A stretch of DNA of 58,453 nucleotides, the filler included, from Sluysia triapertura (Eukaryota), in NCBI GenBank assembly GCA_046118255.1. It is 4 parts of 4 records of this genome, joined end to end, with 100 filler letters (N's around TTAATTAATTAA, not from the genome) between each part and the next. Parts side by side here need not be neighbours in the genome. Positions count along the whole stretch, not along the records: positions 1 to 14,839 come from JBJNIA010247649.1; 3 more parts are not named here. One strand, given 5' to 3'. The position numbers and the translations under genes are program-made. Each line of letters starts with the position of its first letter. Within the stretch, counting starts at the first letter, position 1. Below, piece by piece: positions 1 through 42,110 of this stretch. The notes beneath the pieces were generated by a model. That model made no database searches and was not told where the DNA came from. It was given only the letters and a program-made list of their open reading frames with translations.

Positions 1-700
1 TATTTTAAAGTAAAATTACTCGACCCTGTTATTAAGGTGTCGATGAAAAATTAAAATTAAATTTAAGTCTGATTTTATATATCCCTGTATAAGGTGATAT
101 AAGAAACTTAAAAATAAAAAATTACTTTGATGACATGGAATAAAACAATTTCTTGAGATTTTCCCTTCTAAAATTTCTTGAATTTTTTCTTCTTAAAAAA
201 TCTTTGTCTTCTGATAATAATTTCTTAAGCTTCCTAAAATTTCTTTAAAAAATATCTTCTAAAAATTTTGTCTTCTGCTGAATAATTGATATTTACTTCT
301 AATTTTCTGACAATAAAACTTACTTATTTATACAAGTTTTTCCAATATGGCTGTTTCTAGAATAATTTTTAATTTTTTAACTAATTTAAACAAATTAATT
401 TTCTAAAAATAATTAATAAAATTTTACCTAGATTTCTTACAAATAAATTTTCTTTTATTCCAAATCCCAATTAATAATTTTATATTTTATTTTTTAATTA
501 ATAATTTTATTCTATATTTTATTTTCTAATAAAATAATTAATTAATAATTTTATTTATATTTTACTTTTTAACTAATAAAATAAAAAATTTTATAATAAT
601 AATAATATTAATTTTAAAAATAAAACACATAACATAATAAAACCTTTAAGCGTATTAAGTATAAAAACCTTTACACGAGTTTAGTTTATAATAAATTACA
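1..700 (+). mobile_element. Internal non-coding segment of an LTR-element family (related to 48830-49500 + and 56700-57075 -)
   Basis: Starts with CCCTGT(T)ATTAAGGTG-type motifs (24-39, 83-96), then GACATGGA (132), a TTTCTTCTT...TTTGTCTTCT tract and a T-rich then A-rich stretch. The same CATGGA-onward order is seen at 49189 (+) and 57071 (-). Confidence 0.45.
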
Positions 701-759
701 GGCATACATTTTATTACTTTTAAATTGTTTTTACCAATTTTATTATTTTATTTTGCTAT

Positions 760-1450
760 TTTATTATTGCAATTATTACCGTTAGTATTAATGCTGCTAA
801 CGATAAAAACATTTTGTTTCTTACTTTTGTAGTTTGTAATACGATTTATTATTTAGTGTGAATTATCTGCTATTTATGTGGCGATAAAGAAAATGGATTA
901 TCAGAAACGTGTTATAAGTCCACTACCTAATCGATTTAATATTTCTATTGATTTGAGTATTATTCTCGGTGGTATTATGTTATTATATATTCCAAGTTAG
1001 TTTCAGTTTTTATCATGTACTTCGTATTTATTGATATTATAAATATTGTGATTTGTACTAATTACAAGAATAATTTTATTTTTAACAACTAATAGTCCAG
1101 TTATTCTGAAAGGAAGCATACCGTTTTGCACGGATAGTTTTTCTGTAAAATTTTATAAACAAACATTTTGAAAATGTTGCACTTAGCGTTACTGATTAGG
1201 TGTAATATTTAAATAACAATAACAATATATTAATTTGTAAAACACTAATATCTACTAAGAAAAATTACTTACAGAAAGAAATTTGCTTACATTTTTAATG
1301 CTTCTTAATCTTTCAATGATTTGGCATTATCTTGCACTTTATTGTCACTGTGTATTCTGAACATAAGATCTTAAAGATATATTCAGGCGTAATGTAAGCA
1401 TTTATAAATTACCATAATGATTTTGAATTCTACTAATGAATTTAATTGTA
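760..1450 (-). pseudogene. Decayed ORF-X family copy
   Basis: Manual minus-strand translation gives INAYITPEYIFKI (1367-1405), RIILKSIEIL (~937-966) and VFIVSSINTN (781-810). These are collinear with INSRIEPNLLSQI / QKLLKIEIF / FRISSYDN of the 55530-56490 copy. Confidence 0.5.
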
Positions 1451-1829
1451 GCTAATGTAAGTCTTTATAATTAAATATTATTTCGTATTACTTGTGTTGA
1501 ATTGAGTATTATAAACAATTGTTACAATCTATTATATTAATTATCAATGAATGAACAATGCATTTCCTATATTTTATATCTTGGACTTCATAATATAAAC
1601 TAACCGGATTTGAGCTCAGGACATTTTACTTCTACTGAACTATCATTAACATCTAACAATTTGTTCTTATTCTAGTTTTAATCTTTTTTATTGTTTCTTT
1701 AACTTATTCAACTTTCCAACATTCTCTTCACTTCATGAGGACAATAAATGGTATGATAGATAAGAAGGCTTAATGGCATCTAATGTCGTTTGCATTTGGA
1801 GGTAGTGTGTTACTCTCTTAATCGTATCA

Positions 1830-2140
1830 TTCGCCTGCAGAAATTCACTTGTTTTAAGAGAACTTAATGTGATGAATTATTGGTTGGTGTTTCTTACAGG
1901 CAGGATACATTATATATCTTATTAGGTCGTAGTTCATCAACATTTTTGAATTGTAAAGTTGAAGTATTCCCTAGAAATAGTGATTCACAAGGATAGCTTG
2001 GTATAGCGGTTGGCGTAGATGGTAATATCGTGTGTTTTAAGAGAAAAGATTAAATCTAATGTCTACTTTTGGAATAAGTGCATGTAATGATTCCAAATAT
2101 AAATAAACTTCGTAAACTCCATCCTGATGTAAGAGATGGA
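1830..2140 (-). pseudogene. Possible N-terminal remnant of a class III glycoprotein (signal-like segment plus YxC...N.TT...V.E motif)
   Basis: WSLRSLFIFGIITCTYS (hydrophobic), then after stops IPSYPCESLFLGNTSTLQFKNVDELRP...VLLKQ. This resembles the YDC...NITTISLLDVGEC...QLLQ start of chuvirus-like G proteins; judged by eye only. Confidence 0.35.
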
Positions 2141-2385
2141 TTGCTTGAATATGAGGGAGGCATTGAAGTATTGTTCGTTGCTTTATCATAAGAGGGATTT
2201 TTGATTTTTTGTGAAGTATAGATTTCCCAGCCTTTTCGAGTTAATGATAAAAGAATTAGCGTCAGAAATAAAAGAATCGGGATTATCATTGTTAAAGTAA
2301 ATAATGATTCGTGGAGTACTATTGAGTTAGTAGTTATATTAGTTTCGTTATTGAAATAACGTAACATCCATATATGAGAATTCAT
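2056..2385 (-). pseudogene. Retroelement-internal ORF fragment with a transmembrane segment
   Basis: 109-aa ORF with TM-like LTMIIPILLFLTLILLSL, a NET/NIT sequon region, a PPSY motif and a second hydrophobic stretch at the end. Confidence 0.35.
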
Positions 2386-3269
2386 TATTACTATGCAGTA
2401 ACATGTTCTTCATTATCGTCGCATAAAGTTGAAATCAGTGGGTTCTATTTATTAAGATAAACTACGTTTGTAATAATATTGCATAAGTGGCGGTAACATG
2501 AGGGTTTACAGTAAAGTAAAGCACTTGAAGCGTTATTTTTAAGATAAACCGAGACTAGATCTTAGTTCTTTTAGATGTCACAGGATTCTTATCTGTTCTT
2601 ATTTGACATGCTTGAATATTAACAGTTAGATTGTTCCAAAGGATAAGTAACATTAACGGTATAAAGATATTTTTAATACACTGGAGATTGCATAATTTGC
2701 GGTTAATTACTCTGTATCATGCACACTCTGTCTTCCTTTAGATCGGATATTATAAGGGGATTCTTTAACGGCCATTTTTCACCTATTAGCATGGTGTTAA
2801 GTAATAGTCGACGTCTAATACTATTTCTCTGTAGTAGATTTCTACAGCTTCGTTAGTATTCAAACAAGATTTCATGAAGTCTTGTAGTGAGCAAATTGTT
2901 ACGTTAATTTTAAAGTTTGTAAATATTACTCAACTTATTTCTTATTTTGATTCTCATGATTTTACCTCTTTCTATATCTCCAATTTTGTTAAATAATTTG
3001 AACACTTTCTTTTTCTGCTTTGGTGACCATGTTTATATTGACTTATTTCAATTGCGGATATTTATGTAATGGATCATGATAATTCATAATAGTATTTACA
3101 ATAGTTTCTAGTTTATTCATTTTACTAGGATTTTTTAAAGCTTCTATTTTTTTAGATAAATTTCCCAGTTTGATATGTCCGACTATTCCTTTTAACATAT
3201 ATTTTTATTTCCATTTTCTTTGAGCGTACATAGTCTTTCTTGTGGTACTTCTTTTTGTGTATATAAATC

Positions 3270-3530
3270 GGTTTTCAATTTGATTCCTTTATTTATCAAT
3301 ATATCTGGCACTTGTTCTATTATTAATTCTTCAGGGCAATTATATGCCACTGCAATTTTTAAGTGAAGTATTTTATGTTCTATGCCTATTTAGATTTCCT
3401 ATAAATTAAATATGATAGTGGATCTGACTACTCCCTCGAATTTTTCGAGAACTATCAAATTCTTTTTTTGATACATTTCCATTGATAGTAATTTCCTTAC
3501 ATAACCTATATGGCATTGATCCATTTCTTG
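3270..3530 (-). pseudogene. Possible second, degenerate aspartic-protease-like domain
   Basis: LEKFEGVVRSTIIFNL*EI*IGIEHKILHLKIAVAYNCPEELII parallels the C-half of the first protease (LEGINRKRISEQSIIANIKILNQEIETKVYATSECSEDII). No intact DTG is seen. Confidence 0.3.
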
Positions 3531-3616
3531 CGAAACGAAATTTTTTTGATACAACTGTTATATTGATTAGCTTCGTATCTTGATATGGCCTGTTCCATTG
3601 GTGTATTCTAAAAATT

Positions 3617-3900
3617 GCACATTTTATATGCTTGGCACCATTCGCTTATTTCTTGATCCATTCTGTCCCAATAGTATTTTCTCCGAATTCTCTATAGTTT
3701 TATCTACCATGATGGTAATATGGTGGTTTTTCTTGAGTTGAGTTTTTTGATTAACAATTTGCCATTTACTTTATATTTAAAAAGATTGTACTGCATTTCA
3801 TAACCTTGGAAGATATGTTTTGCTGAGTTGCCACTTTGTATAGCATTTATAACGAGTCTGATATTTTCATCGTTTTTCTGTTCTCTTGCTATTTCCTCTT
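3617..3900 (-). pseudogene. Gypsy-type integrase N-terminal (HHCC zinc-binding) region, frameshifted
   Basis: EEIAREQKNDENIRLVINAI (pre-integrase Q..D motif), then HHG/DKTIE/RIRRKYYWDRMDQEISEWCQAYKMC across frameshifts. This matches the H.G..KT...I...YYW..M...I.....C..C signature. Confidence 0.8.
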
Positions 3901-4109
3901 ATTGTAGGTCCTCGATATTGTCTGGTGTGACCAATTCTTCCAGATCACTAAGAATTTCCAGTGGTAATATATTGTCAATATCGTTTATTTCTATTCTTTT
4001 TGCTGGATTTTTGTTAATTGTGACATCTATATCTAATATTACTTCTTTTACCATTTCTAATGTAAAACCGTAAGCTGGATGTATGAACAGGTCTTCTAAT
4101 TGTCGCAGT

Positions 4110-4380
4110 AAGTTCATACAAATTATGTCCTCAGAGCATTCACTCGTAGCATAAACTTTAGTTTCGATTTCTTGATTTAGAATCTTTATATTGGCTATTA
4201 TGCTTTGTTCACTTATTCGTTTTCTATTTATTCCTTCTAGGTATTATACTTCATCTATTATCTTTTTCCTTTCCCTATGTGGAAGTACTTTATCGCGGAT
4301 TGCTGATATTTGTGATCCGGTATCTATAAATCCATTTAGAGATAAATTATCCATTAATACCCTTTGATAGATTCCAAATT
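4110..4380 (-). pseudogene. Retropepsin aspartic protease
   Basis: LNGFIDTGSQISAI in ORF 4244-4537. It continues past a stop to ...SEDIICMNLLRQL, a decayed D.ILGMD.L motif. Confidence 0.85.
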
Positions 4381-4497
4381 CATTATAATATTTCTTCAGA
4401 TAATAGCAGTTTTTTCGTTCGTTAGAGTTTATTTTATTTTCTTGCATTGTCTCAAGTTCTTTGTTTGGGTAAAGTGCCTTTGATTCCTGTTCTTGTC

Positions 4498-5360
4498 CTA
4501 TGATGGGATTAAGGCTGTGATAATTCTTCGCGCGCATTCTGTTAATCTGTAAATATTATAAGTTGACAACACTTGGGTGCATACAATAATGATAGTTTTT
4601 ATTACAATGTAGATTCCGATACAACCCGAGAAGAATTGTCCAATTATCGCAAAATTTCCCCCTATTTTATAAAGTGTATGCTTAGCTGCTTGTTCAAAGT
4701 GATCCTGCGTCAATAATAATTCGTAATTAGGAGCTTTGACACATTTTGGCAATGCTGCGTCAACAATCTATGTCAAGATTATTGCCATTTGAATTGGAAA
4801 TATTTCGTTCCGAGCCTTTTTTATATCAGATATTTGATACATGCCGCTTTTCGATATATCATTTTCTGTTTGGAAATTAATTCTCTTCCTTAACTCGGTT
4901 AAACTTAGTGCTGGAGGAGCTTCTACCCTTATTCTTGATGGTAAGGAAATCCAATAATTTTATTATACTTTGTATATCGGTGACATTAGGACTGAGCAGT
5001 CCAATATCTTAACCTTATTGGTACTTTAATCATTGTAACAGGCCATACATATCGTCTCTTACCTTTATATTCAATTGGCAGTTCATTTGTACATTCCAAA
5101 TTGTCGTGTAATTTTACTGTTACTCGTTTATATTCGTAAGTATACATCACCTCTCCTATTGGTTTCCCAAATACTCCATCTTTCAATGGTAGTATTGGTG
5201 TTGCCATATCTGGATTAGTGATCATTGTAATTTCCTTATTTAATTGACAATCTCGGTACATGAGTATTTGATATATTTTTTCTAAATGTGTCAAATTGAG
5301 GTGATAATAGAAGTCAATTTTGTTATTAAAATAAAGTTGTATAATCTTACATCGCTAGAC
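4498..5360 (-). pseudogene. Envelope glycoprotein C-terminal half, chuvirus-G / herpesvirus gB-like class III fusogen
   Basis: LYFNNKIDFYYHLNLTHLEKIYQILMYRDCQLNKEI; GVFGKPIGEVMYTYEYKRVTVKL...ECTNELPIEYKG...WPVT; and membrane-proximal/TM FAIIGQFFSGCIGIYIVIKTIIIVCTQV...YNIY...IITALIPS. These motifs follow the order of Jingchuvirales-like G proteins. Confidence 0.75.
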
Positions 5361-5361
5361 A

Positions 5362-5826
5362 TTATTTTCGTTTTGGCGTTAAGCATTGGTTGTCCTCTTT
5401 TGACGAATATTCCATGATAATTTGTACTGTGTTTGTGTGAATATGTCGTTGGATTTCTTTTGTCTCAAATGGTAAGTTCGGTCTAATTTTTATTTTTTGG
5501 CTAGGGTTATTATGCATTAAATGTTTACCATAATTTTTTAATATAAGTTTTGCATATTCCTTTTCGTTTTCATTAAAAGGGTCTCGTATTTTTAATAAAG
5601 TTTCTCTTAATCTTTCTGTTTTACTTATACCTATATCTCCTGTTGCATATTCTCTTAGGGCATTGAATAATCCTCTGTGGTGTGTGCTCCAAATTCCCAA
5701 TTTTATCCTTTGTATAATTTCTTTTATAGCCTCTTGAGTGGCCCTAGCTTTTGGTGTGTTTAATTGATTGTCATCTTTACTATGTTTTTCGTCTTCTACG
5801 GATGTTCCTGCTACTATTTTATTCAT
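5362..5826 (-). pseudogene. Unassigned retroelement ORF fragment between gag and the recognisable env region
   Basis: 154-aa open frame on the element strand. GIWSTHHRGLF weakly recalls the TEHPKLF motif of chuvirus G. Confidence 0.4.
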
Positions 5827-6004
5827 TAGACAGTTATTTAATTGACTTCTTTCTTTTCCTTCTTTGTCTTTATGATCTAATTTTTGTCGTTGATACTTGC
5901 GTACTAAACTTCATTCATTCTGGCAAAATCTCGAATTTCTTCCCTTTCATTATTTTCCATCATATAAATATTATTTCTTTTGTTTAACGGAAAGTTGTAG
6001 CGTA

Positions 6005-7019
6005 ATTCGGGAAGGCTCTTTCATAATGTCCATATTTTTTTATAATTATTGCAATATATCCTATCCTTTATATCTACTTTATTTCTGTCGGAATAATTTT
6101 GAAATTTATTTCTGTTGTCATTGTATGGTCTAAATATTGGAAATCCGTAATCATACCTTTACGTATCTAAATAATTCCTTCTGCAATGGATAAGTTTTCT
6201 GAAGTGCTAAGTTATAAGGCTGCTGGGTTCTTGTGTATGGTTCATAACGATTTTATCTATCTCTATCTTCTTGGAATCTATGACTTCATTTTTTATGAAA
6301 GTAATTATAGTTTCATTGAGGCGATTTCGGTCTATTAAGTTGCTCGTGTTTCGTATTTTTTATTGGTTTTAATACATTATCCTTGTAATTTAGCTTTTTC
6401 ACCTAGATCTCTTCTTTTTTGACTCTTACTAGATTTATCTTATTATTCCTTATTATTCCTTATTATTCCTTACTAGATTATTCCTTATTATAAATTTGCT
6501 CTTCTAATTCTGTGGCTTTTTCTAGCGTTGCATTACATCCTTCGGCATTAGATGCTGTTAATAATGTATCAATATTCTTAATTCCTTTTACGAAATTTTT
6601 CCATAAGTTTTTTATCGAATTAATTTTTTCCTCTTCGATATTTATCTTAGATGGATAAGCCCTTTTGGCTAATATTCTCAATGAGCGTATTCCGCAACGG
6701 TTGTTGCACTCTTTGAACACCGTTTGCTTAAGTTCTTAATATCATCTCCAGCAGTGTCTTTAATAAAATCTGCTTTCAATTTTTCCCAATTGGTTTTTTC
6801 TTCTGAAATGAATTTAAATACGTTCGATCCATGTCCTGTTAGGTATGAGGGGAATTTTCGACATTTATTTTGAGGTCCATCTAAGGGATCCTGTTTCTTG
6901 ATTATATTCGGTAATAAAATCCAAAGTTTCTTCTTGTCCCTTGAAAATTTATCTGTTTTTAGGTTTTATTGCGGATATTAGCTTCGACCTTGGTTGTGAG
7001 TGTTCGTATTATCATCCAT
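6005..7019 (-). pseudogene. Gag (retrotransposon gag domain plus decayed CCHC knuckle)
   Basis: ATG at 7019; fragments FQGQEETLDFITEY, KFPSYLTGHGSNVF...NWEKLKADF and LRILAKRAYP align with ORF 57218-57739. IYCNNYKK/YGHYERAFP at ~6010-6060 is a mutated C-x2-C-x4-H-x4-C. Confidence 0.8.
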
Positions 7020-7206
7020 TGGATCTTTATTCTCTTTATTTGATTTACTATTATATTTAAGACTACTTCTAGTAGTATACACTTTTAGTGTTCAAAACTT
7101 TTAAAGATTATAACATTATCGGAAATAAATTTTTATTTAATCTATACTAAATATAGATTCACTAACTTAATCTTATCAAAACTTATTTATTTAATGTGCA
7201 CCGAGT

Positions 7207-7224
7207 TCCCTAATCTTGGCACCA
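7207..7224 (-). promoter_or_regulatory. Primer-binding site TGGTGCCAAGATTAGGGA
   Basis: TGG-initiated 18-mer 3 nt inside the LTR end (...TCTAACA) and ~190 nt upstream of the gag ATG. Confidence 0.8.
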
Positions 7225-7227
7225 AAA

Positions 7228-8250
7228 TGTTAGATTAGATTGTTTAACTTAAGTTTATCTTGTTTGGATTACTGAACTTGAGTTTTTTTATTGATTGTAT
7301 TCTAACACTTAACTGGAGGTTATCGTTCGCTCGTATCTGGTGGAAGAGATTATCTACCAAAGTTTAAATCTGAGATTAAGTAATTTAAGTTAAACTACCC
7401 GAAAATTTATTAATCAAACTTTTAGTTATTCGATGCAATATTTATCAACAAAATAAATCGTCACAAATTCAGTTAATATTCGATTTCTCTGATAGTTAAA
7501 ATTATTACCACACGTAATTATTGTATAAATTTTTCTTTTCGTTTTTATTATTTCAATGATAATATATTTGTTTAAATATTCTCTTTTACAATATAAAAAG
7601 TGAAAATATATAGAAAGTTAAATTACGTTGTTAATAATAGTTAAATTATACAAATTGTACCTCGTCTAACAGAATAGTAATGATCAAATTACACCTCGGT
7701 CAGTGGAATAAAAAATGTATCTCGTTCAATAGATTAACAGTCGAATTGTATCTCGATCTGTGGAATATTTGATTAATCCAAATTGTATCTTGATTAATTG
7801 TTAATGAACAATTCAAATTGTACCTTTTATACTTTTTTTTCTTCTGCTTGTTTCAACACTGTATTTTTATTCCATTATTAATTACTTTGTTGTGTAAAAA
7901 ATAATTCCACAAAAGAAGCTATTTATTTTTATTCTATAAAAATTATTTGCTACATTGAATACCTTATCAACATTATTCGTTTTTATTCCATTGTTAATTA
8001 TTTATTGAAATAACCATACAATTCATTCTATTGTTACATTAAATACATTAATTCCAACAATGAGTACTATTATATTTTAATTCTATTAATGATTACTTTT
8101 TTGATATAATATTGTTCATGTTTATTCCACTTTAATTATTTATACAATACATTAAGTTTAATTCATTCTTTAAAATATATTAGTTTAATATTAATTTAAT
8201 ATTACTTTTAATTTATATCTGTATTCATTCCATTTTACATTACAATTTTT
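7228..8250 (-). mobile_element. 5' LTR of the Gypsy element (outer end uncertain)
   Basis: Begins TGTTAGA on + (CA end on -) next to the PBS and contains internal tandem arrays. No matching 3' LTR was found in the window. Confidence 0.6.
7650..7826. repeat. About 6 degenerate ~30-bp tandem units, core AAATTGTA(C/T)CTCG
   Basis: Copies near 7651, 7685, 7712, 7743, 7779 and 7814. Confidence 0.8.
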
Positions 8251-8328
8251 GTTTAACATTTTTCTATTTACAATTTTATTTTGCATTTTTATATTTTATT
8301 TTATTTACAATTTTATTTTATTTTACTA

Positions 8329-8330
<2 letters not shown>

Positions 8331-8386
<56 letters not shown>

Positions 8387-8624
8387 GTAATACTATTATT
8401 TCAGTACTTATATCATTATATTTTATTATTTGTTATTATAGTATTAACATTATCTTTACTATGATATTATTACTATTATTACTGTTATTATTTTTATTAC
8501 TATTATTATTGTAATACTAATTATATCATTATAATTATGGTTGTCATTATTTCAGTACTTACATCATATTTTAGTATTTGTTATTATAGTATTAACATTA
8601 TCTTTACTACGATATTATTATTAC

Positions 8625-8676
<52 letters not shown>
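8331..8676. repeat. (TTA)n microsatellites bracketing a ~100-bp direct duplication
   Basis: TTTCAGTACTTA...TTTGTTATTATAGTATTAACATTATCTTTACTA.GATATTATTA occurs at ~8399 and ~8550. (TTA)n tracts lie at 8331-8386 and ~8626-8676. Confidence 0.9.
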
Positions 8677-10289
8677 GCTGTGAGTTTTTTAAATCAAAAT
8701 GAATAATCTTAATTTGTTAGACGACAATTCACGACTTAAAACGTACAGTAAACGTGCATGTAGCTATATATATGTTAACGCGACGTATATGTTCTGCAAT
8801 TTAAATTCATAGCATATACATAGTTAAAATGTTACGCAATTTATCTAGTGTTTTATTTTGTCAGCGGAAATTCTAGATTTGTAGAATGAGAATTGTAATT
8901 GTAATAAGTTAATGGTGTTGCTTTTTTAAATCTAACTTTATGGAGGGTCTAGGAACTTTAATAACTGATATTTATTTCCTAAATTATTCACATGGAAAAC
9001 GCACAAAAGACTGAATTAATATTTTTTATGCAAATTTTCGTTTTAAAGATTAAATCGTCAAATTTACATCAATCATAAAAAGCAGATATACGAAAATCAA
9101 AGAAAAATGTGTAAAAGAACAGCAAGAATATTGTAAACAAAAGTTGTTAGGTTACTATTAAAGATCTATTGCCTTTAATTATTATTTATTAATTATTATA
9201 ATATTGAATTTTTATGAGAGTCTAACTCTCATTAAGTCGGGCAAATAATGATTAATGAAATGATTTTAAGTAAGAATTTATTGGAAATTTTTCAGAGACA
9301 AAACTACCCTCTAATCAAACGTACTAAAATAATTGTTAATTCCAATTAGAATGTCTTAAATTCACCGGATAGATGATACTAATTAAAACTTTTCAAAATA
9401 GCGACTGATTGAATCAAAATGAAATCCAAAATTTCTTCGTGCTTAACCAAAAATAATTTTTAATTGTGCTGATTTTGTCAAAGGGAATCAGTATAAATAC
9501 TTAATATTTTCTCTCATATTATTATTATATTTTAAAAATTATATTTACACAGTGAGCAATTCTCATAAAAATCCATTTGAAATTCTTAAAATTTATTATA
9601 TCAAAATTATTATGACTCAAAATATTATCTTATGATCTTACATTTATTCTCTATCAAATTAACGATTGTGACTTGGTTAGCCTATGAGGTGGTCATATTG
9701 TATTTTCAAATGATGAAAATTAAGAAATTTATTGAGTTAATTTTATCATATTACTAGACAACTTCATGCTAATATGGAGAAGGTTGTCTTCTTTTGACGT
9801 TAATTTTTATTAAAATTTAACAAACAAATCATTAAATAAAATTGTATGTGCAAAAAAATATTGTAATATAATATTCATCTATTTCTAAATTTATAATCTT
9901 TCAAAATTTTAAATCAAATCTAAAATCCATTTAATATAAATTTATTTCTTAAAATAAAATTAAAATTATTATCATAATGCTTTTTCAATTTAAAATGAGA
10001 TGTACTAAAGTTAATATAAATTCGAAATTTAATAGCAAATAATAACCAATTTTAAATTGAAATTAAATGAATAGTCATTTTAAAATGAGATTCTACAAAG
10101 AGAATGCAAAGTTCAATAAAAATCATTTTAATACGCAAGTTATAATCATGTTAAACTGATTAAAACTTGTATGTAATTAAAAATTAGTAACATTATTCTC
10201 GATTAAAATCAACTTAAACTAAATTATTTAGAAATAAATTTAGACAGAAAATTAGTATTAAAACTTATTACTTTTATATATTTATTAAC

Positions 10290-10343
<54 letters not shown>
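10290..10343. repeat. (TAT)n microsatellite
   Basis: Direct read. Confidence 0.95.
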
Positions 10344-10344
<1 letters not shown>

Positions 10345-10793
10345 TAATGCTTGTATGTATTGTGTTGTATTAATGCGGTTTAATTTATTGTATACAATTA
10401 AAATTATTAAATTGAGAACATTTGTTATTAAAATATGAACTTGAAAATTACGATTAAGTTTCATTGTAATCTTCATGTTTTAGATTTGTTACAATAAAAT
10501 AAAAAGTAAAATAATAAGTAATAAAACTAATTTTATTTATATTAATTAAACTAAAAGTTTTTGAATTGATACTGATTATCTCCTGAATACGCCTTTTACT
10601 TCGTAGTTACTTCGTAGTACACATTTCACTAAATAAATAAAAGCATAGAGTTAATTTATAATCAACACAGAAATATTTAAAATTTACTTTTATGTTATCT
10701 GATACCACTCGATCGAATTGTAGATTTACGTAATTGTCGGTAGACACTTTGAGCTCTTTTATATGGGGAGAAGTAACTAAAGTTGCTAACTAG

Positions 10794-11872
10794 TTACTTA
10801 TTATGATGTATGATGGCAAGTGTTGAGTTAATTCCGAGATCTTCAAGCTCATCAACCGAATGGTAATATTTGCATCTTGCAGCATTTTGTGAACATTCTC
10901 CAGTTTGTATTGTCACATACGGACATAGGGCCGTCTTATAATGTTTATTGAAAACTGCTAAATTGGACATCTTTATGCATAGAGGTTTGTTATTAACATA
11001 CAGTGACTTCGAATGTCCAAACTTTGAATTCTTGTTTAGATTTTTGTATTGTGAGGCATGGACTTTCTTTGTCATGACGAACAAATCAATGTCTATTATT
11101 AAGTATGATGATAGTAATATATTGACAAACATCAATATAATTTGATTCTCATTATTCGTTATAAATCTGTCGCAATTTTCATGTCGCTGTATTAATTTGT
11201 ACTTGCTCATATAAGATTCATTCAATGTCGAATTTATTTTTACATGAGAGATATAAATTGATGCAATTAGACTTAAAACTAAAGTTTTGTTCGTGTATGA
11301 AATTGACACATACTTAATCCTCTTTATCATTTGGAGAATTTTTATCAATCGCCAACTCTGCAAAATCCATAATGCGTATTATGTTTTGTGTGATTATTTG
11401 TTGAATAAGTTTTTAACATTTTAAGACATAAGAATACATCAATTTCAAACTTGGATTCATTATATTTTATTAACTTGCCTTTATCGAAAGAACATGTATA
11501 GCCAAATTGTAAGTTATTCTCTATCTGAGATTCGGTAACATTAACTCCGTTGACGTATTTGAATGGCACATATAATGACGAACTCTCGGGTAAACTAAAC
11601 CTATTTTGTAAGACTTCATTTTTACGAATCATAAAAGTATTATTTGGTTGAACAAAATCGCAATCTAAATAATTCTCAATTAAAATTTGTTCAACAATTG
11701 ATCTTAAACATTTTGATAAGTAACATGAACTTGATTTTAATTTTATGTAGTTATAAGAGAATAAATTTTCTTTTGGATTATATACAGATCTGTACAAGTT
11801 TGGACAAAGTGTCAGATCATCACTGTCTGTCAGGACAAAATCGTGCGATACTTCATCTTCCATTTTTAACAT
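10794..11872 (-). pseudogene. Best-preserved ORF-X copy: unknown domain plus C-terminal CCCH zinc finger, split by a frameshift near 11350
   Basis: Two overlapping ORFs (175 aa and 189 aa). HYKTALCPYVTIQTGECSQNAARCKYYHSVDEL (10860-10943) is a C-x9-C-x6-C-x3-H finger with a TTP-like YKTxLC lead-in. Confidence 0.75.
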
Positions 11873-14199
11873 GAATTAAATAAATTATTAATTTCTCTTT
11901 ATCAGTAAAAGATATTATCAATGAATTTCTGTGATCTTCAATATTGAATTAAATTAAATTTATATAGTAAAGATTAAAACTGCTATACCAACCGCTATTA
12001 TAATAAAGGATTATGACAAAATCAATATTATTATTTGTACTGTAAAAATTTTTCTAATTATGCTCATAAAACTGTTCAGTAACACAATATATTATAGTAG
12101 AGTAGTTGTAAACAAACATGCAATAATAAAAGGTGATGAAATTTGTCTTTAACACATTTTGTGATTTGACTCTGTAACTATCATTGGCTGTTCAATCAGG
12201 ACAAGAGACAACAATGAAAATAGCAATTCCGATTGGACAACGAGTGAAAGCGTAACTAAAGTAATGATATGACTCTACCAAGTGACCATCAATAATGACA
12301 GCAGATGGTAAATACGAATTGATACTGCCATTATTGATAGTGGTAGTTACTGAACGGAATTAATGATGTTTTGATTTAAGTTAATTATGATAAAACTAAC
12401 GATAATAAAAATAATAAAAATGACGATAAATTAAATAAAAACATAAATTTCTTTCTTTGATTATTACACAAACGTTCTTTTAATTTTAACTATTTTCTTG
12501 ACGCATCTTGAAATGTTAATAAGTTGATAAGAGGTATCAATGTGGTTAATGTTGGAGATTGATGGATGTATAAAGTTAAAATTCTAACGTTGCGAGATAG
12601 TAAATGAAAATGTTTTAAATGAACTTTTAAATATACATTGAAGGTTTTGAAAGTCATAGTTTGAATGTTGACAGATTGTGTATTAAAAATGTTTTGAACA
12701 AGGTTTAATGCGTATTAATGGTTTTGAAATTAGACTAGTTTTAGTGGATCTGAAAGGAATAAAATATAGTAATGGTTTTGATAATTTCTAAGAGGTATTT
12801 GTGCAATGTTAAGAGTTGTGCTTATGATTGTACTGTTATTGAATTATGAGTAGAAAATGTTCTTGATGCATTTTTTTAATGTATGTTATTAATCTGAAAG
12901 TAAATGTAATTTTAATGTTATGAAGTATGAAATAGAGATGTTTTGAGAAGGTTAGGATAATGTTTTAGTGGAAGTAAAGGAATGAAATATGGAAAGATTT
13001 AAATGTAAGAATAGTTAAAATGTTATGGAATGTGATTTTATGTGAAATGTGTTGAATTAAGTTTGCAATATTATGGATTAATTTTTTAAGTAAATCTTTG
13101 ATGATTTTCGGTATTAAATGTAAATTTGATGTTATGTAATTTTATGTTTAGAATATTTGGAAATATTATGAATTATGAAATGTTGTGAAAGGTGATTTCG
13201 CTGTGATTTTTTAAAATAAAACTATAAGATATTGGGTTGGTCACCACAGTATTTGCTAACTATTATTAATATTTGAACTAAATTAACATTACTAATTAAA
13301 TGCATTATATCTAATTACTGTTGATAGTTGAAAAATAACTATTAATATTCAGACAAAATGTAAACATTAAAAATTAATTATTTAATGCTTAACAAAAAAA
13401 CAATATAAGTACAGTTACTGAAAATAAAAAACGCTACAAAATAATAGAAAACTTCACTGAAGAATTTATTGAAGAATTTAAACTGAAGAAATTGAATTTA
13501 TCGATACGCATCGATACCACTGGACATTTATTACAAACAAAAATTAATTGAACATTCCAATCTTAATTGAAACAGTAAGTAATATTATATTTCCTTCGAA
13601 CAATAAAATTATAAAATAATTTTATTTTTAAAAATTTTAATTTTAAAAATTAAAACTGTACATTTTTTGTTATCATTGTTTCAGTATAAATCTGTAAACT
13701 ATAAATAAACTATAAACTGTAAATGTCAAATTGAAATATAATAAACTGTAAACTACAACCGTAAGTGTAAGTAATGAATGTTAAATTGAAATATAATAAA
13801 TAAAAACTGTAATGTATGTAAATTTTAAGTAAAGTAATATTTGTAATATTTTAATTATAAATAATATTTTAATATTTTAAGCAATAAATATTTTCAACTA
13901 AAATATTTTAATATTCCAGAATAAAGTGAAATAATGATAATTAAGTTGCTATTATTATGATTATTATTATTAACATGTGTAATTAGATAATTGATATTGA
14001 ATGGATTTGTGCTACAAAATTATTAGTATGTATAATTAGACAATCGGTTTTAGTGGATTTGTATTACAAAATTATTCTTAGCATTTGTAATTAGACAATT
14101 GATTTAAATATTGATTGTAATTAGATTTAGTTTTGAATATTCGTATTGACTATTTAATTTTGACTACTATTATAAAAATATTATTTGATTTGTACTGCA

Positions 14200-14500
14200 C
14201 AAAGAGTATAAAAGGAGTAAAAATTAAAACAAAACACACTGTGGAAATTGGAGAAGATAAATTTTTTTAATTTTGGCCGATCTACCTTTATCAATAACAG
14301 TGAAGAACAAGAACTCTATTATTAAACATTGGTATATTCAATTTTGATTCAGTAAGTAATTATTTATTATTTCATTTTTTTTCTGGAATTTCTTAAAATT
14401 TTACTTTATCCTTTATAAATAAAAGAAATAAATAAATAATTTTGAGTGTTATTGTTTTATTTTAAAATCGATCTTTGGGAGTGGTGCCACTATTAAATCT
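14200..14500 (+). promoter_or_regulatory. TATA plus splice-donor module resembling the LTR-like repeat family
   Basis: GAGTATAAAAGG (~14204), AACACAC start-like motif, CA/GTAAGT donor (~14352) and GGGAGTGGTGCC (~14478). The layout is the same as at 30648 and 42188. Confidence 0.4.
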
Positions 14501-14761
14501 ACTTATAAAATATTACCTTTGAATATTAGTTAGAGTGTAACTAAATAATTATTAAGCACTTCTATCCTAAACAACAGGGACAAGTACATTAATTCATACT
14601 TCCAGTTAAGTCTAATATAAAGTGATGCTATTAATTGAATTTCAGAATAACTATAAATTTTATAAAGGATTTGAATTAACAATACAGAGCAAGGATTTTT
14701 TAGAGTATAAAATAATATCCAGACATATTTAAATTTGTTATAGATTTAAACAAATAACATA

Positions 14762-14839
14762 TGGGGTCGTTCGGAAAACACGTCACACTTTAGGGGGGAG
14801 GGGGGGTCTAGAAAAGTGTGACACATTGTGACAGGGGGG
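14762..14839 (+). mobile_element. End of a MITE-like element truncated by the gap
   Basis: GGGGTCGTTCGGAAAACACGTCACAC...GGGGGGAGGGGGGG...GTGTGACA is a GC-rich end with an internal GTCACACTTT/AAAGTGTGAC inverted repeat, typical of a widespread invertebrate MITE type. Superfamily is uncertain. Confidence 0.55.
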
Positions 14840-14939
14840 NNNNNNNNNNNNNNNNNNNNNNNNNNNNNNNNNNNNNNNNNNNNTTAATTAATTAANNNNN
14901 NNNNNNNNNNNNNNNNNNNNNNNNNNNNNNNNNNNNNNN
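14840..14939. other. Assembly gap with TTAATTAATTAA linker
   Basis: N44-TTAATTAATTAA-N44, identical in all three gaps. Confidence 0.98.
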
Positions 14940-27661: not shown

Positions 27662-27761
27662 NNNNNNNNNNNNNNNNNNNNNNNNNNNNNNNNNNNNNNN
27701 NNNNNTTAATTAATTAANNNNNNNNNNNNNNNNNNNNNNNNNNNNNNNNNNNNNNNNNNNN
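27662..27761. other. Assembly gap with linker
   Basis: N44-TTAATTAATTAA-N44. Confidence 0.98.
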
Positions 27762-42010: not shown

Positions 42011-42110
42011 NNNNNNNNNNNNNNNNNNNNNNNNNNNNNNNNNNNNNNNNNNNNTTAATTAATTAANNNNNNNNNNNNNNNNNNNNNNNNNNNNNNNNNN
42101 NNNNNNNNNN
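42011..42110. other. Assembly gap with linker
   Basis: N44-TTAATTAATTAA-N44. Confidence 0.98.

Follow-up and report, generated by a model that had tools for sequence, protein, structure and literature searches.

In the planarian element Burro, as described in the available part of PMC6431247, env lies in frame, preceded by cargo domains on the gag side (UBL and BCL2 among them) and followed by PR. GAG-ENV-POL errantiviruses with an HSV/gB-type ENV have been described in three phyla, Platyhelminthes, Nematoda, and Bryozoa, and six of them come from Schmidtea mediterranea (PMC13524379, available in part); Sacco et al. 2022, as cited in the same text, described nematode non-canonical ERVs in which ENV precedes POL in a Ty3/gypsy element. 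The locus described here is located in a stretch of 58,453 nucleotides from Sluysia triapertura (assembly GCA_046118255.1), referred to below as the window; a fusogen-bearing element sits entirely inside its first contig (JBJNIA010247649.1, positions 1–14839). Scaffold gaps in the window are found at 14840–14939, 27662–27761, and 42011–42110. The initial annotation of this locus assumed that env normally follows pol, which is right in general, but gag-env-pol elements with a gB/chuvirus-type env have already been published; the gag-env-pol order of this element is real but already known from the literature. What appears to be new, by the literature searched, is an array of proteases with ubiquitin-like domains (UBLs) and a spare zinc finger; no description of a multi-protease array was found in that literature, and it may be that two or more proteases are already depicted in Burro figures or Repbase entries.

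The minus strand carries the gag, the class III env, and the protease of the window copy, in that order and at the coordinates that the initial annotation had given, with gag identified by tblastn, env by PF24664, and the protease by RVP; all features of the element given below are on this strand. A probable 5′ LTR region (7228–8244), which is multi-copy and non-coding, presented 65–75% matches in other contigs and a CA end right before a PBS-like motif; its outer edge is unfixed, and no second LTR copy was found in window positions 1–14839. The PBS-like motif, a weak candidate primer-binding site seen in the sequence (7207–7224, TGG after CA-TTT), is near the point at which many sister matches start (7232–7237); of 11 sister loci, just 1 contains the motif, at a non-matching place. 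The gag region (6005–7019) contains a frameshift and stops, matches sister copy L031 at 52–65%, and ends in a decayed CCHC zinc knuckle (near 6060–6010, judged by eye only). None of its pieces had a Pfam match at E ≤ 0.001; in tblastn comparisons with the gag regions of relatives, the Retrotrans_gag region of P0073 aligned to 6872–6681 (E = 3.7e-5) and the gag region of P0076 to 6866–6684 (E = 2e-4). Between gag and env lies a family-specific segment X (5432–5910) with a 182-aa ORF (5362–5910); a homologous stretch is present in seven sister loci, and the segment had no Pfam match, no usable Atlas match, and, against P0053, only a match at E = 0.47. The env (4498–5428) comprises the C-half of a class III (chuvirus-G/gB-type) ectodomain and a transmembrane (TM) helix. 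Its assignment as a class III fusogen, already made in the initial annotation, was confirmed by PF24664 (Monjiviricetes_fusion), which matched in three pieces colinear with the profile: 4986–5354 (E = 1.1e-7, profile positions 309–417), 4768–4959 (E = 1.1e-4, 441–495), and 4498–4767 (E = 2.6e-8, 523–592).

The env cytoplasmic tail or linker (4388–4497) leads into protease 1 (PR1; 4076–4387), a retropepsin with a DTGS motif and one internal stop that matches PR1 of L031 at 74%; read through with X, positions 3899–4555 contain FIDTGS and match PF00077 (RVP) at E = 1.3e-4, above the cut-off. PR1 is followed by a conserved linker (3776–4075; 54% to L031) and by a spare integrase-type H2C2 zinc finger (3599–3757; PF17921, E = 4.6e-5), which is partly deleted and has no integrase core after it; the same finger in L023 and L031 matches PF17921 at E = 9e-14. 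The next feature is a remnant of protease 2 (PR2; 3300–3500) that has lost the catalytic-motif region in this copy and matches positions 28–100 of L031 PR2 at 63%, L031 PR2 itself matching PF00077 at E = 3.3e-12. A spacer and a UBL remnant (2798–3190, the UBL at 2938–2798) were recognized with a profile of sister UBL domains (iE = 6e-10). The last segment (1729–2793) consists of the C-terminal end of integrase and a hydrophobic, membrane-type accessory segment, the counterpart of which follows integrase in nine sister copies (L120, L121, L123, L127, L130, L131, L132, L137, and L164). This post-integrase segment has helices of hydrophobic character and several occurrences of a PPSY motif, is found in more than 40 contigs, and had no Pfam match. 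In the contig of L123 and L156, a new LTR-end/gag start is found about 1.8 kb past the series of integrase, membrane segment, and C-terminal protease, as if one LTR served two copies. Elsewhere in the first contig of the window, a CCCH finger resembling that of Unkempt was matched below the cut-off (PF25427, E = 1.6e-6) in a minus-strand ORF at 10794–11378, which is preceded by a 176-aa ORF at 11345–11875.

The window element is a decayed, dead copy with internal deletions. The N-half of env was deleted near 5430, where L024, L025, and L031 contain 2.0–2.2 kb extra; this extra stretch of the sister copies holds positions 7–89 of the PF24664 profile. Approximately 105 nt are gone from the env tail near 4495, as compared to all three aligned sister copies (L039, L031, and L030), one of which (L039) has a single open frame, uninterrupted by stops, running from the env TM through to the protease. 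The stop-to-stop ORFs of env (4498–4767) and protease (4244–4555) overlap in the window because of this deletion; the overlap pointed out in the initial annotation is thus present, but it represents a lesion of this copy and not the native layout, and a programmed env/protease overlap is ruled out. RT is absent after the protease, the element is truncated at 1729 (its 3′ end), and the UBL remnant is joined straight to the post-integrase segment near 2800, with everything from the third protease through RT and RNase H to the integrase core deleted. In one public sequencing run (X1), a contig bridges the env–protease junction (4379–4660) without differences, and the join near 2800 is likewise bridged by an X1 contig, but the assembly may have been built from X1, which does not count as independent support. 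The env–protease junction exists as DNA. None of the X1 contig pieces listed shows the join near 5430, and the public sequencing runs listed include one with the element and no RNA run.

Because RT, RNase H, and the integrase core are missing from this copy and many other copies are partial, the window element could represent a non-autonomous family that has gag, env, and proteases and obtains RT and integrase from a helper. We consider this very improbable, as the join near 2800 is found in none of the 43 other matches, all of which start at or beyond 2793, and the protease arrays of sister copies continue into RT (L027, L023, L160, L162, L164, L166, L167, and L172). In L023, L164, and L172, the pol order that is deleted in the window copy is PR-RT-RH-IN, with a gypsy-type RT, and the best relatives are polyproteins of the Ty3/gypsy type.

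The position of env ahead of the protease recurs throughout the genome (619 Mb in a fragmented assembly of 263,945 contigs). The env–protease stretch presented 51 matches from 40 scored candidates, and the env family presented 2,752 first-look candidates, 68 of which were scored. Among 74 env-TM loci (with one contig counted twice and the window's own locus included), 50 have a protease at most 1.2 kb downstream of the env TM, in the same frame in 25 of these 50 and stop-free in seven (L039, L072, L073, L076, L043, L047, and L086); the 24 env loci without a protease include 14 in which the sequence ends within 700 bp and 10 with at least 700 bp available. In 134 de-duplicated loci, chosen by targeted searches and not a random sample, env was followed by PR 46 times, and neither RT nor the integrase finger was ever followed by env (0 cases each). 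The gag-to-env stretch measures about 3.5 kb in L024, L027, and L031. Outside this genome, the best 120 long relatives of a sister pol included 13 with PF24664 in the same protein, and env came before PR/RT in every one of these 13; frame continuity from gag to env was seen only in these public relatives. Env between gag and pol is thus a family trait, and the junction in the window is not unique to this copy. The initial annotation had left a choice between a real non-canonical polyprotein layout and a post-insertion rearrangement; this recurrence in sister loci and public polyproteins supports the former and refutes the latter. More broadly, a one-locus accident, whether rearrangement after insertion, nested insertion, or misassembly, might be suspected in a copy with three large deletions and many stops from so fragmented an assembly, but given the 50 loci, the 13 public polyproteins, the published elements of the same order, and the X1 contig that bridges the junction, the chance of such an accident is negligible. 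One of the env-first gypsy polyproteins (P0069) is labelled as coming from a Flavobacteriaceae MAG, which is likely to be eukaryotic contamination; its RT pairs with that of L072 (98/96). Two others contain an immunoglobulin domain after integrase (P0075, 2481–2554; P0077, 2673–2749).

In the subfamily to which the window copy belongs, the order is gag-X-env-PR1-linker-spare H2C2 finger-PR2-UBL-PR2b-UBL-PR3-dUTPase-like spacer-RT-RH-IN-membrane segment-PR-like (DTA). This order represents a domain map assembled from overlapping decayed copies, using natural domain probes on sister copies, with no single intact copy seen; the dUTPase-like spacer was named by position after PMC6431247. The protease array segment presented 57 matches from 40 scored candidates. 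The adjacencies that define the array include PR1 followed by the linker (20), the finger by PR2 (23), PR2 by UBL (19), UBL by PR2b (14), PR2b by UBL (18), UBL by PR3 (16), and PR3 by RT (8); PR1 was never followed directly by RT (0). Four proteases are found within one contig in L027, L090, and L163, and three were scored in 12 further loci, including L034, which represents one protease split by an insertion. PR2b is missing from a subgroup (L023, L036, L164, and L166), so that three or four proteases precede RT.

The domain that is repeated before PR2b and PR3 is ubiquitin-like by its predicted structure. Its model (pLDDT 71.5) has a beta-grasp fold and matches ubiquitin-family structures (Foldseek best E = 8e-5, with 77 structures reaching E ≤ 0.001), and it resembles a ubiquitin cluster in the Atlas (0.92). 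At the sequence level, 14 pieces had no Pfam ubiquitin match, the PDB gave only chance Fab matches, and there were 0 matches among 1.84 billion representatives; a sequence search, itself weak, for longer proteins with UBL and PR3 found none. A UBL is also present before the BCL2-like domain in a sister subfamily, and PR2b and PR3 resemble retroelement proteases; capture of a host Ddi1 was considered as a possible source of the UBL–protease pair.

The sister subfamily (L073, L076, L077, L079, L082, L083, L084, L086, and L087) has the order UBL-BCL2-like-env-PR-RT-RH-IN-extra protease, with open frames of 500–690 aa in some copies. Its BCL2-like domain matches Pfam Bcl-2 below the cut-off (E 0.003–0.006), and a BCL2 probe matched this subfamily only, with no match in the window subfamily; BIR, MATH, and ankyrin had no match in the ORFs scanned. 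In the RT tree (42 rows), the window subfamily is sister (100/98) to this BCL2-bearing subfamily, which has a single protease before RT, and both nest in a clade of env-first elements (100/99). More than one protease was also found in 6 of 19 public polyproteins examined, the remaining 13 having at most one. In three intact polyproteins (P0053, P0067, and P0080), env is separated from RT by two D[TS]G proteases, and IN is followed by a third; P0062 has two proteases before RT, P0064 has two after integrase, and P0073 has one on each side. C2H2 fingers are located between the two pre-RT proteases of P0053, and ankyrin repeats between the two post-integrase proteases of P0064. The two-protease public proteins form a separate RT group (96/86). 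This tree is compatible with protease amplification on at least two independent occasions, or with an old state of several proteases from which some were lost.

The four proteases of the array have diverged from one another. In a protease tree (51 rows, at most nine per class, 101 columns, with long branches), they formed position-specific clades in which PR1 paired with PR2 (96/96) and PR2b with PR3 (99/98), a pairing that suggests two old duplications. The DTG motif was retained in 20/22 copies of PR1, 21/27 of PR2, 10/15 of PR2b, and 14/19 of PR3; the post-integrase PR-like domain showed DTA in 5/9 copies and DTG in 0/9. Pairwise dN/dS values, which are non-independent and near saturation in the most distant bin, were 0.16–0.48 for the four proteases (PR2b being the weakest constrained, at 0.31–0.48), 0.21–0.36 for UBLs and finger, 0.15–0.30 for the linker, and 0.06–0.17 for RT, indicating that all parts of the array were once coding under purifying selection. 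Since conservation of the linker equals that of the proteases, this selection does not prove catalysis. The extra proteases, the finger, and the UBLs may instead be leftovers of an old recombination or duplication in pol that have been retained as folded domains with a spacer or scaffold role, only the RT-proximal PR3 being a cutting enzyme. The H2C2 finger without a core between PR1 and PR2 resembles a collapsed older pol, the sister subfamily has a post-integrase protease, the number of proteases varies from three to four, the dN/dS of the linker is close to that of the proteases, and the domain after integrase shows DTA in five of nine copies and DTG in none. We nevertheless find it doubtful that the extra copies are leftovers, since PR1, PR2, and PR2b have retained DTG at about the same frequency as PR3 although the proteases share an identity of only 26–43%, PR2 clusters with PR1 and not with the post-integrase PR (in a weak tree), and open frames with two DTG proteases ahead of RT are found in a separate RT clade.

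We favor, with moderate confidence, the reading that the window element belongs to a Ty3/gypsy family that is related to Burro and has three to four tandem retropepsins before RT, that it encoded one membrane-crossing polyprotein, and that the extra proteases are active and free Pol from the Env tail. In intact relatives, hydrophobic helices are found on both sides of the ectodomain, which would place Gag in the cytosol, the ectodomain in the lumen, and Pol in the cytosol on an Env anchor. Under such a topology, Gag would be synthesized in the cytosol, the ectodomain would enter the ER by means of an internal signal helix, and Gag and Env would be separated by signal peptidase; the Env TM helix would then bring the chain back to the cytosol, leaving Pol tethered to Env and not to Gag. 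Pol would thus be packaged via the Env anchor and would have to be cut from Env. Retroviruses and LTR retrotransposons normally have one protease, the dimerization of which times maturation, and retropepsins work as dimers. Several proteases on one chain may allow self-processing at the membrane without a second chain, or may share out the cutting sites. The UBLs may represent docking or timing modules, by analogy with UBL-retropepsin proteins such as Ddi1. A more general proposal, which we put forward only tentatively, is that env-first elements repeatedly amplified their proteases (four here, two in the separate clade), yielding UBL-regulated retropepsins that work as a single chain or by division of labor and release Pol. 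If true, the release of Pol by a UBL-regulated array would represent a processing strategy not described for reverse-transcribing elements. The three to four diverged, motif-intact proteases and the intact two-protease relatives provide natural material for studying gag-env-pol processing and the packaging of Pol without a Gag-Pol fusion.

Among known systems, Troyka (PMC12440569, available in part) has the same PR-RT-RH-IN order but was rejected as the family of this element, as Troyka elements, which have CG...CG termini, all lack env, and that text describes a single PR, whereas the window element has an env. Anakin, a mosquito BEL/Pao element (PMC7642597, available in part), is likewise an LTR retrotransposon that captured a chuvirus-type class III env; however, its pol is BEL/Pao, whereas the RT of the window subfamily falls among Ty3/gypsy-type relatives. 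The nematode ERVs of Sacco et al., as cited in PMC13524379, have the same ENV-before-POL order in a different host phylum. The GAG-ENV-POL errantiviruses of PMC13524379 share the Ty3/gypsy pol, gB-type env, gene order, and multi-copy state, and the N-half of the env of sister copy L022 resembles domain I-II sequences of the Smed_errantivirus group by eye. In the available text of that paper, a protease appears once, in a generic scheme, and no protease array is described; Smed_5 and Smed_6 span 2–3 kb more than Smed_1–4 and could be array-bearing relatives. Burro and GYPSM1 (PMC6431247, available in part) resemble the present family in an env with matches to mononegavirus fusion proteins, a single polyprotein, a ubiquitin/SUMO-like domain, and a spacer between PR and RT, and the UBL-BCL2-like-env-PR order of the sister subfamily of the Sluysia genome is also Burro-like. 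This layout, taken with the by-eye likeness of env to the Smed sequences, makes a planarian host likely. None of the Burro cargo domains was detected in the window subfamily, whether BCL2 with the probe or BIR, MATH, and ankyrin in the ORFs scanned, and while Burro is giant (internal region up to 25 kb, >30 kb in total), the gag-to-env distance reported above argues against a giant ORF here. Finally, the Burro text available describes one PR, with a UBL ahead of BCL2 and env, whereas in the window subfamily the interval from env to RT holds three to four PRs together with two UBLs and the spare H2C2 finger.
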